Source: Microthyrium microscopicum | Taxonomy: Eukaryota | Reading direction: 5' to 3' | Assembly: GCA_010405405.1 (NCBI GenBank) | Contig: MU004231.1 | Coordinates: 2,123,860 to 2,187,859 of the forward strand | Length of the DNA stretch: 64,000 nt | In this document: positions 10,448 to 37,389 of the stretch, piece by piece | How positions within the stretch are numbered: position 1 is the stretch's first letter | How the letters are laid out: every line of letters starts with the position of its first letter | Translations under genes and position numbers: made by a program | Notes under the pieces: model-generated | The model's input: the letters and a program-made list of their open reading frames with translations, nothing else | Databases searched by the model: none | Told to the model about the DNA's origin: nothing

Positions 10448-12079
10448 CTAAGCCTTCGTTTCCTTTGATATGCCATGAGACTTTTCATCCTCAACAACAT
10501 CGCTCTTCTTTTCAATATCACTCTCACCATCCTCTCTCTTCCCATCTTCCAATGTTTCTCTGCCTTCTTCCGCTGCAAGTTCTGTCAAAGCCTTGTGCGT
10601 TGTCGTGCCCTCTGCTTTTTCCAAGTCCCCATCCTTCCCTTTATAGAACACCGTTTCCGCAGTCCTTCCATCAGCACTCATCTTATCCTTTTTACGCATA
10701 CTGAATCCTCCATGCCAACCAATCCAGCCTTTCTCCCAAGGCCCTCTCAGCAAAGCAAACAAAATCGCGGCTCCAATGAAGCCTACGCTTGCACTTCCGC
10801 TTAGTCTCCAACCGCCTTGCGCAAAAACATGGTTACCCGCACTCGTGCCCATCAACTGTCCCAAGAACGTGCTCAACATATACGCCACGTTGACGCGGTT
10901 CCTCGCATTTGGCTCAATGCTATATATCGCATTTCGATTCGCGATCTGCGCTGTCTGCATGCCAAAATCATTCAGCACCGCTTGTACCACTGGCCCAGCT
11001 ACACTAAAGGTGCCTGTATACGTGCCTACACAGATACCAGCCAAAGTGGTCACACATCCGACTAGCACGCTGAAGTGCGGGACATATCTGTCGCTGACGA
11101 ACCGTGCATAAAATGGGTTCAGCAACATGCCTGCGATGCCTATCAGCCCGAATAGACCCACAATCAAGGGACTGTAGTTGTATGGCTCGCCTGCTAACAG
11201 GAAAGTAAGCGTTGTCCAGAAGTTAGTGAATGTCGCACTGCTGAAGAAGGCGACGAGACAGGCTTGTACGAGGACAGGGTTTCGAGTGAGGATTGGGAAT
11301 ATACTCCACAGCATGTAGAAGTAGTTCAGGCCGGCTGGGTTCTTGGATGGGTAGTCGGGCATGAAGAGCCAGAGGAGGCCGAATATTAGGTATTGGAGAC
11401 CACAGGAGAGCCAGTATATGGTGCGCCATGGGGTGTAGTTGGTGAGTGTTCCAGAGAGGACGCGCGCAATCAGGATTCCGAGGGCAAAACCGGAGACTAC
11501 TATAGCGAGAGCTGTGGCGCGACGGTTCGGGGGCGCAAGATCACCGACGAGTGGGAGCATGAGTTGGGGAGTGACGGTGGAGATGGCTACGACGAAGGAT
11601 ACGCCTTGGAAAACGCGGAGGGATTTTGTGACGCAGAGAATGATCCTGGTTTGAAGTTAGTGGGAGTCTATATCAATCGGTTTGGGTATTTACCATAAGC
11701 TTGATGTCAAGAAAACTAAAGATAGAACAAATGGTCGTCTTCTCAAGATATCTCCCAGTGGACAGAGTAGGAATAGCCCCAAAGCGTACCCAGCTTGCAT
11801 GAGCGTTGGTATCAAAGAAGCCTCCTCAAATGTAGTGTGGAATTCTGCCGCCAAAACATTCAGGATGGGATGATTATAGTACAGATTGGCGACGGTGAAT
11901 GCTCCAGCAAAGGCGAAGAGTACGTTCAGTGCCATGCTGAACTTTGGTGGATTCTCCGGATCCCATCGACAATTTGGAGGAGTCCATATTATGATCTTCC
12001 AAGCTTTTTGCAATAATACAGGAACTTTTCTCTTGTGAGTCGGTTCCGTCGAATGATTCTGTGGTGTTTGTGAACTCAT
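10448..12079 (-). CDS. MFS transporter (YnfM-like/uncharacterised fungal MFS); 2 exons, intron ~11646-11693
   Basis: 'FTVANLYYNHPIL', 'QAGYA.GL..LCPLGD...RR', 'PL.GDLAPP.RRA.AL.IV.SG...GIL.AR..SG' and 'ARNRVN..YM' motifs; many TM segments; two ORFs joined by a GT-AG intron. Confidence 0.88.
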
Positions 12080-13593
12080 TGTAGCGATTGAGTTCGGAGA
12101 TCACCCAGACTAGTAAAGTCGATGTTGTTTCCCAACAAGAACGAAGTCCCAGCGTACTGACATTGCTGAAAAGTGAGATCTATCGGATTTAAAGAGAAAT
12201 GTTTCTGAAATCCACAAGTCGGACTTGAGTCGTTGACGATACCGGCTTGATGATTGACGGCAGGATCTTGGCGTGTTATTCCCGAAGAGGTTGGACTCGA
12301 TTTGCCAGGCAGACTAAAATTATGCAGGTGGAATAGGTTAGATGTAGGTAGCTGTTAGTTATGCCCGTGAGTAGACTAAGCAAGCAGAAGATGTAAAGAA
12401 GTCATGCAATTGTTGGTTTGATCGGTTTCTAGGTACTGTGTTGCAAATCGCTATTCCCATTTTCAGCCTTATGCTAGCCAGGTTCAGCCTTGTCAAACCC
12501 AGACCGACCTTTGTTTCGTAAATCCCATCAATACAACGCGAACCTGGAAAACCTAAATCCGGGAGAATCTCTTGACATTCCCTTCGAGTATAGCTTCGTC
12601 AAAGTCTAAAATTCATCTAGACCATCTCGATACCTCACCTCGAAGGTAAACACGAGTCCAGAGGGCAGACAGTAACGGCTTACACTTTTCTCTTTCTAAT
12701 TCGTATCTCCCTCAAGCAAATGCGCTTTGTAATAGCATATGTGACTCCCAGATGATTGGGGTTCCTAGGCCGGGAACTCGGGTTTTTCGGCAGTTCCCAC
12801 ATTTCATGGTCGGACTGATGTGTTACTCGTTCAGGAGGCCACGATTACGCCCTGGGTCACTGCTTTAATGCGTTATAACGCCTAGCCATAAAACTTATCT
12901 CAACTTCTGAACTTGGAATTGACCCTGCTCTTAACTTGACGCACAATGCTATTTATATCTCAGGAATGATGCCAGCACTCTACGAAGGTGAAAATATCCG
13001 TGTCTGCTCCATCAATGGAATTTCAAGCATTGACATACAATCACAAAAATTCAACTCTATTTCCAAACATGTTTGATATGGTACTTCTAACTTACGCACC
13101 AGATAGGAATGCAAGCACTTCATCCTGGAGCATCGTTAGCAGACAATGTAGTTTCCGGACATATCCACAAGCCAAAAAAGGATGGACAAAAGATAGAATG
13201 CTCTGCCAGTTTAGCCGAGTTGAAAGAGTGGTGGCTATCACCATTATTTTAATCCAGAGATTACAATTCTAACCAAAAAATTCCCGTTTTGAGACGCTTT
13301 TGAAATCGAGTGCTGTAAATCTCCCTTATAGCATAGAACCGCTGATTTGCCATCGAATGCGCTGGAAATTGAAGCACTCTCTCCTTATAGAGTGCGATGG
13401 GAGACATAGTGATTGATGGGAGCGCGCCATCTACCATACTTTTTCCAATGTATTAGAGCGTCGGCAGATATGATACGTACCTGAAAAGGTACAGTACTGC
13501 AACGTTCAGAACGCAGCTTGGGCACTTGGAGGGGCAAAAAAAGGCCACACAGGCTCCAATACCACCCTGAACTTTGGGACATATCAGAACAGC

Positions 13594-13599
13594 AAAAAA
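13594..13599 (-). terminator. Putative RNA polymerase III terminator (T6) 17 nt downstream of the tRNA-Gln
   Basis: Run of six A on the plus strand, i.e. TTTTTT on the tRNA strand, shortly after the discriminator base. Confidence 0.6.
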
Positions 13600-13615
13600 G
13601 AATGAAATTGATTTT

Positions 13616-13751
13616 AGGTCGTGCCCGGATTCGGACCGGGGTTACCGGAATATGCCTTTGAAATCAAAATCCGGTGTGATAACCACTACACTCTGTTAAG
13701 AGTTAGCAAGCGCAAAGTTTAGGATGTTTGGGGAAAAACTTGCACACAACC
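13616..13751 (-). tRNA. tRNA-Gln(TTG) gene interrupted twice: canonical 13-nt intron after position 37 (13651-13663) and a 51-nt spliceosomal-type GC-AG insertion between positions 8 and 9 (13693-13743); T-loop has U55->C; functional status unknown
   Basis: Minus strand: GGTTGTGT|[51 nt]|AGTGTAGTGGTTATCACA-CCGGA-TT-TTG-A-[TTTCAAAGGCATA]-T-TCCGG-TAAC-CCCGG-TCCGAAT-CCGGG-CACGACC-T. Acceptor GGTTGTG/CACGACC, D stem GTG/CAC, anticodon stem CCGGA/TCCGG and T stem CCCGG/CCGGG all pair. Confidence 0.85.
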
Positions 13752-14254
13752 ACACGGACGTAACGTCCAAACTTAGCTCCCAAAGGAGTTAGTTGTTTTG
13801 TCATTAATGACAAATCTGGTGAAAGATTTGGGTTACATTTGGATGACTTTTGATGAATTTGCAGCATTAAATTGCACCAAAATGCAATATATTCCAGCTG
13901 CATATCTTCGCCTCCACGCAACCCGTTACTTCGATAAACCTTCTTTGTCTATTTGTTTTAAAGCACTTGATGAAAGAACCTAGCTACTGGGAGCTAACGA
14001 GGCTGATGGATGGGAGTGCGTCAATTATTTTGCCATGCCGTTGGACATGGAGAGCCAATCTATTCAGTGATTTGATGAGAAGCTACGCAAACTGCCTAAT
14101 TATGGTAGAAATAGCCCCCGGATGATAGAGCGAAGTATCTGTCAAACATCGCAGTCGGTGGTAGCAAATAAGTGACTTTGTCCATCGGCATTAAAAATTT
14201 ATGGTGGTCTTATTTCAACAAGCGCAAATCTTGATTCTATCTAATCAGCAAATT

Positions 14255-16261
14255 CTACTTGCCCAAGTCTAGCTTCTTTTCCGTATCTGCGGCCAGTTTC
14301 GCCGCTTCCTTCTTGAGACGTTTCTTCTCCTTCTCCCGCTCCTTAGATGCCTTCTTTGCTGCAGCTTTGGCAGCCTCCTCCGCCTTGGCCTTCTTTAGTT
14401 CTTCTCCACCATATGCCAGTTTCCATTCCTCTAGCTTCTCTACCGGGATTACTTTGAATAGAGGTGCAGGTGTTCCGAGTGTATGGCCTGGTTTGAGTTC
14501 GTTTGATTCCCAGGTATCTGGAATATGTGCTTTCGGTTCGAGACCAAGCTGTTGAAAGATGGCCTCGGCAGTGCTAGGCATGTATGGGTAGAGAACGCCG
14601 GCAAGGAGTTTTATTAGATTGAGTGCCTGGCCGATAACAGCAGCGCATCGATCAGGCTCTTCGGAGAATAGACGATTGTCCAGTTTGTTGTCTTGTAGAA
14701 GCTTATTGCCACATGATGAGATGTGCAGAATGTCTGCAATAGCTAGTCGAAGTTTGATTGCTTCCATGTGCTTGATGTAAGTGGTTAGATGGGCGTTGAC
14801 CTCTTTCTTAGACTCATCCAAGCTGGCATCTGTAAATTTGGTGTAGTCAGGAACAGTACCATCCATTTTGGCGTGACAGAATTTGGTCACTCGCAGAACC
14901 AAGTTGCCGATGTTTTTGAGCAACTCATTGTTGTTGGTGCTGATAAACTCTTCCCATTTGAATTCGGTGTCACCGCTTTCTGGCCTTCTTGAGAGAAGAT
15001 AGAATCGCCAGATATCGGGGTCGATACCAGTGTCTTTTGCGTTCGTGCCAAAGACGCCAACGCCTTTGGACTTGCTGAACTTGCCACCTTCGTAGTTGAG
15101 ATAATCCGTAGCAGACAGCTTGTGGACCTTGACCCAGTTATCACCAGTGCCAAGCTGGGAACCAGGGAAGATGATGGTATGGAATGGTACGTTGTCCTTT
15201 CCCATGAACTGGTATAGAGAAACATTATCAGGGTCCTTCCACCACTTTTCCCAGTTCTTGCCGCCAAGGTCTCCCGCATCAGTATAGTTGTTGGTGATAG
15301 AGACGTAACCAATGCAAGCATCGAACCATACGTAGAACACCTTGTTCTTGTACTCTTCTTCGTCAAGTCCTTTAATACCGGTCGGTATTGGTACACCCCA
15401 CTTGAGATCTCGAGTGATAGCGCGAGGCTTTAAGCCCTTGTCAATCCATGATTGTGTAATGGCAATGCAGTTTGCGCTCCATTCACCCTCCTTGCTCGCC
15501 TTGGAGTACCAATCGGCAATGTTGTCCTTGAGTGAATCGAGTTTAAGGTATAGATGCTTGGTACTTCGTCTCACTGGCGTAGTTCCGTCTACTTTGCAGT
15601 GTGGATTTATCAGCCAACCAGTAGCTTTCTCAGCAGGATCTTGGTCTTGGTCGTCGTCTCCAGCTCGGCGTTCGGGCTCAAATGGATCAAGAAGATTTCC
15701 ACACTTGTCGCATTGATCTCCACGGGCACCAAGATCATGACATATACTGCACTCTCCTTCCACAAATCGATCGGCCAGGAAAGTGTTATGCGCTTCGACT
15801 GGGCAGAAAGGTTGTATGGTCTCGCGTTCTTCGATGAAGCCGTTGTCCCATAGTGAACGGAATATGCTTTGGACGATTTGGGTTTGATGGGGAGTTGGAG
15901 TTTGACCGAATATGTCGAAATCTAATCGAAACCAGTCGTAGATCTCTTTGTGAATTGCGTGGTATTTTGCGCATAGGTCCGTTGGGGTCAACCCCTCCTC
16001 GAGAGCTTTCGTTTCGGTCGCTGTGCCATATTGATCCTAGATTTCGTTAGAGGACGTACCACGCAAAAGAGAATAGACTATACTCACTGATCCGCAGACA
16101 AAGAGGGTAGGAATGCCTCTAGCCTTACAAAATCGAGAGAAGACGTCGGCAGAGAGCACGCTCCCGATCAGATTGCCTAGATGTGGGACGTTGTTGACGT
16201 AGGGAAGAGCGCTGGTGATGAGTATGTTGCGCTGACCTGGGATAGGCAGCAATGGAGCCAT
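14255..16261 (-). CDS. MES1: Cytosolic-type methionyl-tRNA synthetase; 2 exons, intron 16037-16087
   Basis: [16 protein letters not shown] (HIGH-like), [11 protein letters not shown] across the intron, Zn-knuckle Cys pairs, [22 protein letters not shown] (KMSKS-like), Lys/Ala-rich C-terminal tail. Confidence 0.96.
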
Positions 16262-16962
16262 GACCTATTCTTCTTTCTTGTTTGGGGAAAATCAGCTATC
16301 GGATGCCTCTCAAACTTGCTCATGTATCAAAGTTGGGTGTGAGTCCACGGGGGCAGTGGAGTCAGAGCATCGAAATTCCGAGGCCCTGGGAACGCGGGGT
16401 GTGGCGCAGGTGGTCCCACAAGCCACATATCTCCTTTTCCTGCTTGACAACATTACGACGACTCCTTATCCAATGCTACACTACTCCATCTCCCGTGTTT
16501 CCAGCCTCGTCGTCCTGAAATGTACGTGTCCTGAAAAACTGGGCAGAGAGTATTGTAATGGCCCACTTCTCATAGCTATGGTTCTGATCATGTCGACATG
16601 ATACATCGAAAGCCCCTGAACGATGAGCTGCCATACTGAGAGAGAGAGAGCTTGATAAGTAAGAGAGTATGGGTTCAGTCAATGAGGCGACCAAGGCCTC
16701 CGTCAATGTGATCAAATTCGTCAACTCACAGTATCGAATGACGATGAGTGATCTATTCTGGTAGGTAGCTTAACTCGTACTCGATCTTGACTCATGTTGC
16801 TTCGTATTGAGAGCATGGGTGCCCTTCAGTCAAGGCAGCACGATATTTCCTAAGGCGAAGAGGTGCTGTCAGCTATACCAGGATAAAGGCACTTCTGCGC
16901 TGATTGATCTCTTCGAACAGCTCTCTGAAGTCTTCCGTCAACAATACAAACATAGTGTCCAA

Positions 16963-35623: not shown

Positions 35624-35913
35624 NNNNNNNNNNNNNNNNNNNNNNNNNNNNNNNNNNNNNNNNNNNNNNNNNNNNNNNNNNNNNNNNNNNNNNNNNNNNN
35701 NNNNNNNNNNNNNNNNNNNNNNNNNNNNNNNNNNNNNNNNNNNNNNNNNNNNNNNNNNNNNNNNNNNNNNNNNNNNNNNNNNNNNNNNNNNNNNNNNNNN
35801 NNNNNNNNNNNNNNNNNNNNNNNNNNNNNNNNNNNNNNNNNNNNNNNNNNNNNNNNNNNNNNNNNNNNNNNNNNNNNNNNNNNNNNNNNNNNNNNNNNNN
35901 NNNNNNNNNNNNN
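35624..35913. other. Assembly gap (N run)
   Basis: Run of N. Confidence 1.
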
Positions 35914-37049: not shown

Positions 37050-37389
37050 NNNNNNNNNNNNNNNNNNNNNNNNNNNNNNNNNNNNNNNNNNNNNNNNNNN
37101 NNNNNNNNNNNNNNNNNNNNNNNNNNNNNNNNNNNNNNNNNNNNNNNNNNNNNNNNNNNNNNNNNNNNNNNNNNNNNNNNNNNNNNNNNNNNNNNNNNNN
37201 NNNNNNNNNNNNNNNNNNNNNNNNNNNNNNNNNNNNNNNNNNNNNNNNNNNNNNNNNNNNNNNNNNNNNNNNNNNNNNNNNNNNNNNNNNNNNNNNNNNN
37301 NNNNNNNNNNNNNNNNNNNNNNNNNNNNNNNNNNNNNNNNNNNNNNNNNNNNNNNNNNNNNNNNNNNNNNNNNNNNNNNNNNNNNNNNN
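37050..37389. other. Assembly gap (N run)
   Basis: Run of N. Confidence 1.

Follow-up and report, generated by a model that had tools for sequence, protein, structure and literature searches.

A spliceosomal intron between positions 8 and 9 of a tRNA-Gln(UUG) gene in Microthyrium microscopicum

A split tRNA-Gln(UUG) gene downstream of the MetRS gene

The window, that is, the whole 64-kb stretch of DNA that was analysed, contains genes for methionyl-tRNA synthetase (MetRS), phosphoglucomutase, an MFS transporter and mannitol dehydrogenase, and introns of about 50 nt with CTAAC branch sites. The MetRS gene (14255..16261, minus strand), recognized by its matches to Pfam families PF09334 and PF19303, lies upstream of the locus described here and on the same strand, and the protein-atlas cluster nearest to its ORF is commonest in Ascomycota; the window was therefore taken to be nuclear DNA from a fungus of ascomycete type. 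Its 51-nt intron (16087-16037, minus strand; GTGAGT...CTAAC...TAG, with the branch A 10 nt from the end) was verified by the continuity of the Pfam profile, the exon 16261-16088 matching positions 1-45 of PF09334 and the ORF from 16036 downward matching positions 46-390. Elsewhere in the window, a block of ~22 kb (24000-47000) has a G+C content of ~18-26% between flanks of ~46-51% and holds two runs of N (35624-35913 and 37050-37389); this block has the look of an AT-rich isochore, of degenerate repeats or of a centromere-like fungal chromosome region.

A split tRNA-Gln(UUG) gene occupies 13616..13751 on the minus strand, with G1 at 13751 and the discriminator T73 at 13616. An initial annotation had pointed to 13625..13743 of a tRNA-Gln; the tRNA-Gln is indeed there, but the gene extends beyond that interval. 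In the raw window, ARAGORN reported no tRNA, with or without intron options, and Rfam RF00005 gave a partial match at 13692-13624 that covered only model positions 9-63, without the acceptor stem, at 30.9 bits against a gathering score of 29. Once the 51 nt from 13743 to 13693 were excised in silico, ARAGORN at its default setting returned the cloverleaf of a 72-nt tRNA-Gln(UUG) with a 13-nt anticodon-loop intron. The gene is therefore not a contiguous cloverleaf interrupted at most at position 37/38, since a 51-nt insertion separates positions 8 and 9, and the locus shows why tRNA finders miss such genes in annotation. No other tRNA-like element was found by Rfam in the 64-kb window at E<=1.

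The 5' exon (13744..13751, minus strand) consists of the 5' strand of the acceptor stem, GGTTGTG (13751-13745), which pairs at 7/7 positions with CACGACC, and of T8 (13744). Beyond the insertion, A9 (13692), the D arm (13691-13676) and A26 form a segment at 13675..13692 (minus strand) that was delimited by Rfam and ARAGORN and contains the remnant of the A-box without T8. The anticodon arm (13645..13674, minus strand), called by ARAGORN and read from the sequence, carries the anticodon TTG at 13667-13665 and is interrupted by a canonical 13-nt 37/38 intron (13663-13651, minus strand; ARAGORN intron call and sequence), in which CAAA is able to pair with UUUG of the anticodon loop. The T arm, CCCGG-TCCGAAT-CCGGG (13624..13640, minus strand; Rfam alignment), is followed by a segment at 13616..13623 (minus strand; ARAGORN) made up of the acceptor 3' strand CACGACC (13623-13617) and the discriminator T (13616). 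Read from the sequence, a T6 run on the minus strand (13594..13599), taken as the relic of a Pol III terminator, lies 16 nt past the discriminator, and a T7 run on the same strand (13542-13536) lies further downstream.

In the ARAGORN drawing, the acceptor stem forms all 7 of its pairs, one of them U-G, and the anticodon and T stems are complete (5/5 each), whereas the D stem has three pairs and a U13-U22 mismatch; the earlier statement that every stem pairs is thus nearly correct. U33, A37, G18-G19, the pairing between anticodon and intron and the discriminator are all intact. With all four stems kept, the sole lesions of the tRNA are the insertion and a C at position 55. The motif GGTYGTGT, corresponding to the 5' acceptor strand plus T8, occurs once on both strands of the 64-kb window, exactly at 13751-13744, where 1.06 occurrences per window are expected, and by our own arithmetic the probability that a copy on the correct strand falls by chance in the 60 nt upstream is ~5e-4. 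Because the motif is unique in the window and lies precisely at this place, a chance origin of the acceptor half is very unlikely.

In tRNA genes, the A-box consensus is TRGCNNAGTGG, starting at position 8, and the B-box consensus is GGTTCGANTCC. Both boxes are altered here, as the initial annotation had noticed, and the gene has no intact internal promoter. The B-box reads GGTCCGAATCC (13637-13627), with a C instead of the invariant T-loop U at tRNA position 55 (13634); in the Rfam tRNA alignment, the conserved block GGUUCgAaUCC is matched at every other position. In the A-box, which is G-AGTGTAGTGG, A9 (13692) follows the G of CAG, and T8 sits 51 nt away, on the other side of the insert. U55 is important for tRNA folding whichever polymerase transcribes the gene. 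From the usual placement of TFIIIC and TFIIIB, an A-box-directed Pol III start would fall within the insert, downstream of the 5' exon. The two T runs that had been pointed out were also found: the T6 run is present downstream (13599-13594), but a T5 run (13734..13738, minus strand), a potential Pol III terminator by its sequence, also lies within the insert and hence between the exons (13738-13734).

A sequencing error at C55, which the initial annotation had named among the observations that would undo its argument, was ruled out by comparing contigs over 13300-14600, Logan contigs being such that minor variants are dropped. X1 and X3, both DNA runs of the source sample, showed zero differing letters over this interval. 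X5, a run of a different study with another organism label and 0.90 of the sampled words, which a tool labelled 'RNA?' as a guess and in which DNA is possible, yielded a contig with no differing letters over 13300-13692 and 13746-13841, C55 included. None of the runs listed is on record as RNA. Since X1, X3 and the separate-study X5 all carry C55, it is neither an assembly nor a sequencing error. X1 and X3 had no further contig on 13431-13958, which is no evidence on copy number. A further run, X6 (organism C), was set aside as it gave short pieces only, among them an 88-nt contig that aligns to 13616-13651 with 3 differences and has a loose end resembling a tRNA-Gln(CUG)-type anticodon arm; it is uninformative for the tRNA-Gln(UUG) locus.

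The locus is flanked by two diverged copies of a dispersed repeat of ~85 nt (13345-13430 and 13959-14044), in direct orientation and 594 nt apart, the second copy lying within the MetRS 3' region. Their shared core is GATKGATGGGAGYGCGYCA, and many other source-sample and X5 contigs align to these copies at ~85% identity.

The insertion as a spliceosomal intron

Measured against the cloverleaf, the insertion (13693..13743, minus strand; GCAAGT...CTAAC...CAG) is 51 nt long, and a perfect tRNA results when it is excised as a GC-AG intron. It is placed exactly between T8 and A9, without target duplication, and is preceded by the tRNA's own GT, so that the intron may be read as starting with GCAAGT or with GTGCAAGT and as 51-53 nt long. 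A CTAAC branch-site motif (13702..13706, minus strand) was recognized from the sequence, with the branch A at 13703, 10 nt before the 3' splice-site G, and the insert ends in CAG. The features expected of a U2-type intron, namely GT (or GC) and AG ends, a branch motif at the distance usual in this window and the local intron length, were thus all found.

Precise removal of this sequence was observed in one X5 contig, a contig and not raw reads, from a run that is RNA by inference. This 889-nt transcript-type contig has its placed part at 13300..13841, with letters 377-769 on 13300-13692 directly joined to letters 770-865 on 13746-13841 and nothing between; the minus strand was assigned from the GT..AG ends. 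It skips 13693-13745 (53 nt), which reads CT..AC on the plus strand and GT..AG on the minus strand (side 96, both 0). As joined out at 13692->13746, the intron (13693..13745, minus strand) therefore comprises 53 nt and includes G7 and T8, and the boundaries of the insert and of the intron agree within 0 and 2 nt. Of the remaining letters of the contig, 376 extend past 13300 and 24 past 13841; these were unplaced.

The insertion is thus a real spliceosomal intron, because its length, its CTAAC branch site and its 10-nt distance from branch to end match those of the verified MetRS intron and because the X5 contig joins the sequences on either side. An ectopic tRNA intron of the endonuclease type was rejected: no helix with 3-nt bulges at the junctions was present in the MFE or centroid fold of 13755-13612, both single-sequence folds, in which the insert pairs with itself, and a donor, a branch site and a CAG are present instead of a bulge-helix-bulge (BHB) or relaxed hBH motif. 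The internal hairpin of the insert is modest (-7.8 kcal/mol, equalled by 6 of 200 shuffles). An origin from an introner or repeat was also discarded, the insert being unique in the 64-kb window, where a second copy was searched for and not found; that none of the other source-sample contigs aligned over it is weak evidence in the same direction. A regex scan picked out a second intron-like stretch (13480-13431, GTACGT..TAG), but it was not skipped in the X5 contig and was dismissed.

The insert (13725-13737) and the MetRS 5' leader (16279-16291) have an identical 13-nt word in common, TTTTCCCCAAACA (minus strand). With its low complexity and an E value of 0.033, this best other match in the window is probably due to chance.

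The X5 contig runs on through both the T6 (13599-13594) and the T7 (13542-13536) runs. Because of its length and of this read-through, the transcript appears to be a long, Pol II-type one and not a Pol III product, and we infer both its strand (minus) and its polymerase. The nature of X5 itself was deduced from its uneven coverage: word depth was 734.9 for the MetRS contig and 21.1 for the tRNA-spanning contig, a 35-fold change between adjacent stretches, whereas the DNA runs X1 and X3 had flat depths (101.2 and 948.5) and a single contig across the whole stretch. X5 also comprises 28.4 million contig letters, compared with 44.3 million in DNA run X1. These results suggest that X5 is RNA. It was without cover over 13696-13739 and 13872-13915, blanks that are no evidence of silence or of transcript ends. 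The X5 contig of the MetRS message stops at 13925, ~330 nt past the stop codon. A coding role was looked for in the 10 small ORFs of 12076-14125, and none matched a Pfam family at E<=0.01; the best match, to Utp12, was at chance level (E 0.064, 13.8 bits for a cut-off of 31.5).

The position of the join has consequences for the product. The observed junction, 13746|13692, removes G7 and T8 together with the 51-nt insert and leaves GGTTGT|AGTG, and this GT-AG product gave no ARAGORN tRNA at the default setting, being accepted only at a lowered threshold (-ps90). Only a GC-AG splice, with the donor 2 nt downstream (join 13744|13692), would rebuild the cloverleaf, and its product passes ARAGORN at default; the splice that was seen does not restore a functional RNA. 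Among the contigs, which drop rare variants, none had the 51-nt skip of the GC-AG form, and the only junction was the 53-nt GT-AG one. The usual donor consensus is GURAGU, to which the donor used (GUGCAA) is a poorer match than the GC donor (GCAAGU).

Origin and fate of the split gene

Two outcomes had been put forward in the initial annotation: a move to Pol II transcription, with which spliceosomal processing would agree, or a tRNA-like RNA that is decaying or has taken on a new role. The first is borne out as far as a long contig lacks 53 nt with GT..AG ends and continues past T6 and T7, but its join loses G7 and T8 and yields no tRNA at the ARAGORN default. For the second, the loss of G7 and T8 and the reality of C55 tip the balance towards a disabled copy, while repurposing survives only as a rival. 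The intact stems, which had been held to argue against long neutral decay, carry little weight, as a young pseudogene would look alike.

The explanation that we prefer, and to which we give an even chance, is that the locus is a recently disabled copy of a tRNA-Gln gene that has newly gained an intron, which is removed from a long Pol II-type transcript by splicing. Its ancestor would have been an ordinary Pol III tRNA-Gln(UUG) gene with the canonical 13-nt 37/38 intron and the T6 terminator, in which a 51-nt spliceosomal-type intron would have inserted exactly between U8 and A9. This insertion would have parted T8 from the A-box, left the 5' exon upstream of the A-box-directed Pol III start and put a T5 run between the exons. 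As the start would lie inside the insert, the B-box carries C55 and the T5 run precedes the second exon, Pol III would no longer be able to make the full precursor. The locus may now be covered by a long same-strand Pol II-type transcript, for which read-through from MetRS is one possibility, and the only RNA seen with both exons is indeed the long spliced Pol II-type one. The spliceosome would use the GU of the tRNA's own G7-U8 and so remove a 53-nt GU..AG intron, leaving unused the consensus-like GC donor 2 nt downstream; the spliced RNA, deprived of positions 7 and 8, would have neither a normal acceptor stem nor the U8 tertiary contact. Because positions 7 and 8 are lost and the T loop has C55, the copy is most likely a young non-functional pseudogene, which implies a loss of tRNA function.

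The insert would also seem to have been an intron already on arrival, since its boundaries coincide with those of the intron within 0/2 nt and since full splice signals would be unselected in a dead gene. It may have entered by reverse splicing into a nuclear pre-tRNA from which the 37/38 intron had not yet been removed, with reverse transcription and recombination as the later steps. Each base of the sequence before insertion is given by the tRNA fold, so that the exact insert is known (51 nt), and the locus also shows a host sequence supplying a competing donor. It is thus a clean natural example for testing mechanisms of intron gain.

Several points, however, speak against a disabled copy. 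The scarcity of lesions, none besides C55 and the insertion, fits selection as well as youth, and the GC donor that would restore the tRNA (GCAAGT) matches the consensus better than the donor seen (GUGCAA). RNase P and RNase Z would clear correctly spliced molecules from the pool of long RNA, and a minor productive isoform is therefore possible. The identification of X5 as RNA rests on a tool's guess and on the inference from depth, and the pseudogene reading would fail if this were the sole tRNA-Gln(UUG) gene of the genome.

A functional tRNA with two introns is a possibility that we consider unlikely. The gene would be transcribed by Pol II, the spliceosome would remove 51 nt at the GC donor, and RNase P, RNase Z, the tRNA splicing endonuclease (acting on the 13-nt intron) and the CCA-adding enzyme would produce a working C55 tRNA-Gln(UUG), while the GT-AG form would be an unproductive isoform that persists as a poor substrate of RNase P/Z. 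The perfect 72-nt cloverleaf that ARAGORN finds at default after GC-AG removal, the consensus-type GC donor GCAAGT, the intact stems and a long spliced transcript that spans both exons are all consistent with this scheme; the loss of the A-box and B-box would be irrelevant under Pol II, and a rare productive form could have dropped out of the contigs. However, the sole junction seen is the 53-nt GT-AG one, no contig has the 51-nt skip, the U55 that matters for folding is a C here, the depth of the contig concerned is low (21.1), and there is no such case in the literature searched. That the gene would be the first tRNA to require the spliceosome, i.e., a Pol III-incompetent, two-intron tRNA-Gln(UUG) with a GC-AG splice at 8/9 and endonuclease removal of the 37/38 intron, is a stronger claim that we regard as improbable. 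If it were true, the amount of tRNA made would depend on which donor is chosen, given that the GU donor 2 nt upstream gives a dead product. A minor productive isoform, were it real, would contradict the rule that Pol III makes the cytosolic tRNAs and that their only introns are of the endonuclease type.

It is likewise rather doubtful that the element has been exapted, i.e., kept as a structured tRNA-like module in a non-coding or UTR transcript, either as a signal for cleavage by RNase P/Z like MALAT1 mascRNA or as a switch in which the choice between GU and GC donors decides whether the transcript is cleaved. Such a role would agree with a tRNA-like fold lying inside a long spliced transcript whose small ORFs are without a Pfam match at E<=0.01, with donors 2 nt apart that give one foldable and one non-foldable product, and with stems that stayed intact though the promoter boxes were lost. 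RNase P is described, in the available part of the source, as cleaving the tRNA-like structure of the Pol II lncRNA MALAT1 (PMC4824109). The X5 contig nevertheless passes uncut through the element, and nothing is left to explain beyond a young pseudogene.

The 53-nt gap in the X5 contig could also be a deletion polymorphism in the DNA of another strain, with X5 being a DNA run, in line with a label 'RNA?' that is only a guess and with the possible presence of DNA. We consider this very improbable, as the gap begins with GT, ends with AG and contains a CTAAC at the 10-nt distance found in the verified MetRS intron, the X5 depths vary 35-fold and change abruptly where the MetRS 3' region ends, in contrast to those of flat DNA runs, and X5 has 28.4 million contig letters when DNA run X1 has 44.3. 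Finally, it is scarcely credible that the 5' acceptor half is a chance match beside a 5'-truncated tRNA fragment and an unrelated intron, as the Rfam alignment limited to positions 9-63 and the blank raw ARAGORN search might suggest, because the 128 kb of strand that were searched hold a single GGTYGTGT, which adjoins the intron donor, and the insert and intron boundaries coincide within 0 and 2 nt.

Comparison with known systems

A search of metagenomes for AG followed by the D-arm (AGAGTGTAGTGGTTATCAC) gave 3 loci, none of them relatives of the split gene and none with an Rfam match at E<=1. Two of these (L001 and L002, 401-440 in each) are near-identical AT-rich contigs in which a fragment resembling the D arm and anticodon arm of a tRNA-Gln, without a T arm, directly follows AGGTGAG; this fragment is perhaps a tRNA-derived repeat from some other eukaryote. 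The third, L003, was rejected as a relative, being unrelated coding-looking DNA.

Ectopic and multiple introns of the BHB type, cut by the endonuclease, have been described in nuclear tRNA genes of Cyanidioschyzon merolae and in Archaea (PMC3728597, PMC3978253). As far as the accessible parts of these sources go, the tRNA-Gln gene resembles those cases in that, besides its canonical intron, it is interrupted once more in its 5' part, away from 37/38. It differs from them in that its MFE fold contains no BHB, and a donor, a CTAAC, a CAG and a GT..AG join are found instead.

The portion of PMC4824109 that is available also allows a comparison with MALAT1 mascRNA, which likewise has the shape of a tRNA and forms part of a long Pol II-type RNA. 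No cleavage was seen at the tRNA-Gln element, through which the contig passes, and, unlike mascRNA, this element is a former bona fide tRNA gene with an anticodon, a canonical intron and a Pol III terminator. The apparently recent gain of a short intron with a modest hairpin recalls fungal introner-like elements and other recent gains, within what the available text of PMC3609843 and PMC5647799 covers; in contrast to introner-like elements, the insert has no second copy in the window and has the length of a regular intron, not the longer one of those elements.

Spliceosomal introns are known in other genes for stable RNAs, such as U6 of Schizosaccharomyces pombe and of other fungi, the U2, U5 and U1 snRNA genes of Rhodotorula hasegawae and the rDNA of ascomycetes, according to the accessible parts of PMC5855946 and PMC2586383. 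For the U6 introns, an origin by reverse splicing, reverse transcription and recombination has been proposed in the part of PMC5855946 that is available. The part of a tRNA review that could be consulted in PMC10275265 describes only Pol III transcription and endonuclease introns at 37/38, and no report of a spliceosomal intron in a tRNA gene was found in the literature searched, which consisted of open full texts, with subscription journals outside it. Within this literature, a tRNA gene is thus a new class of host for spliceosomal introns in stable-RNA genes, here with a splice that does not restore the RNA.

In common with the introns of U6, U2, U5, U1 and rDNA, the tRNA-Gln insert is a GT-AG intron with a branch site inside the gene of a structured stable RNA that as a rule lacks spliceosomal introns, U6 being moreover a Pol III gene. 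It is unlike them in its host, as tRNA genes are not listed there, and in that the splice seen is 2 nt off and leaves the RNA unrestored; it also parts the internal promoter from the 5' exon, and the spliced transcript looks like a long Pol II one. The introns in U6, U2, U5, U1 and rDNA have been used as evidence for spread by reverse splicing into abundant nuclear RNAs, and the same origin would fit the tRNA-Gln insert.
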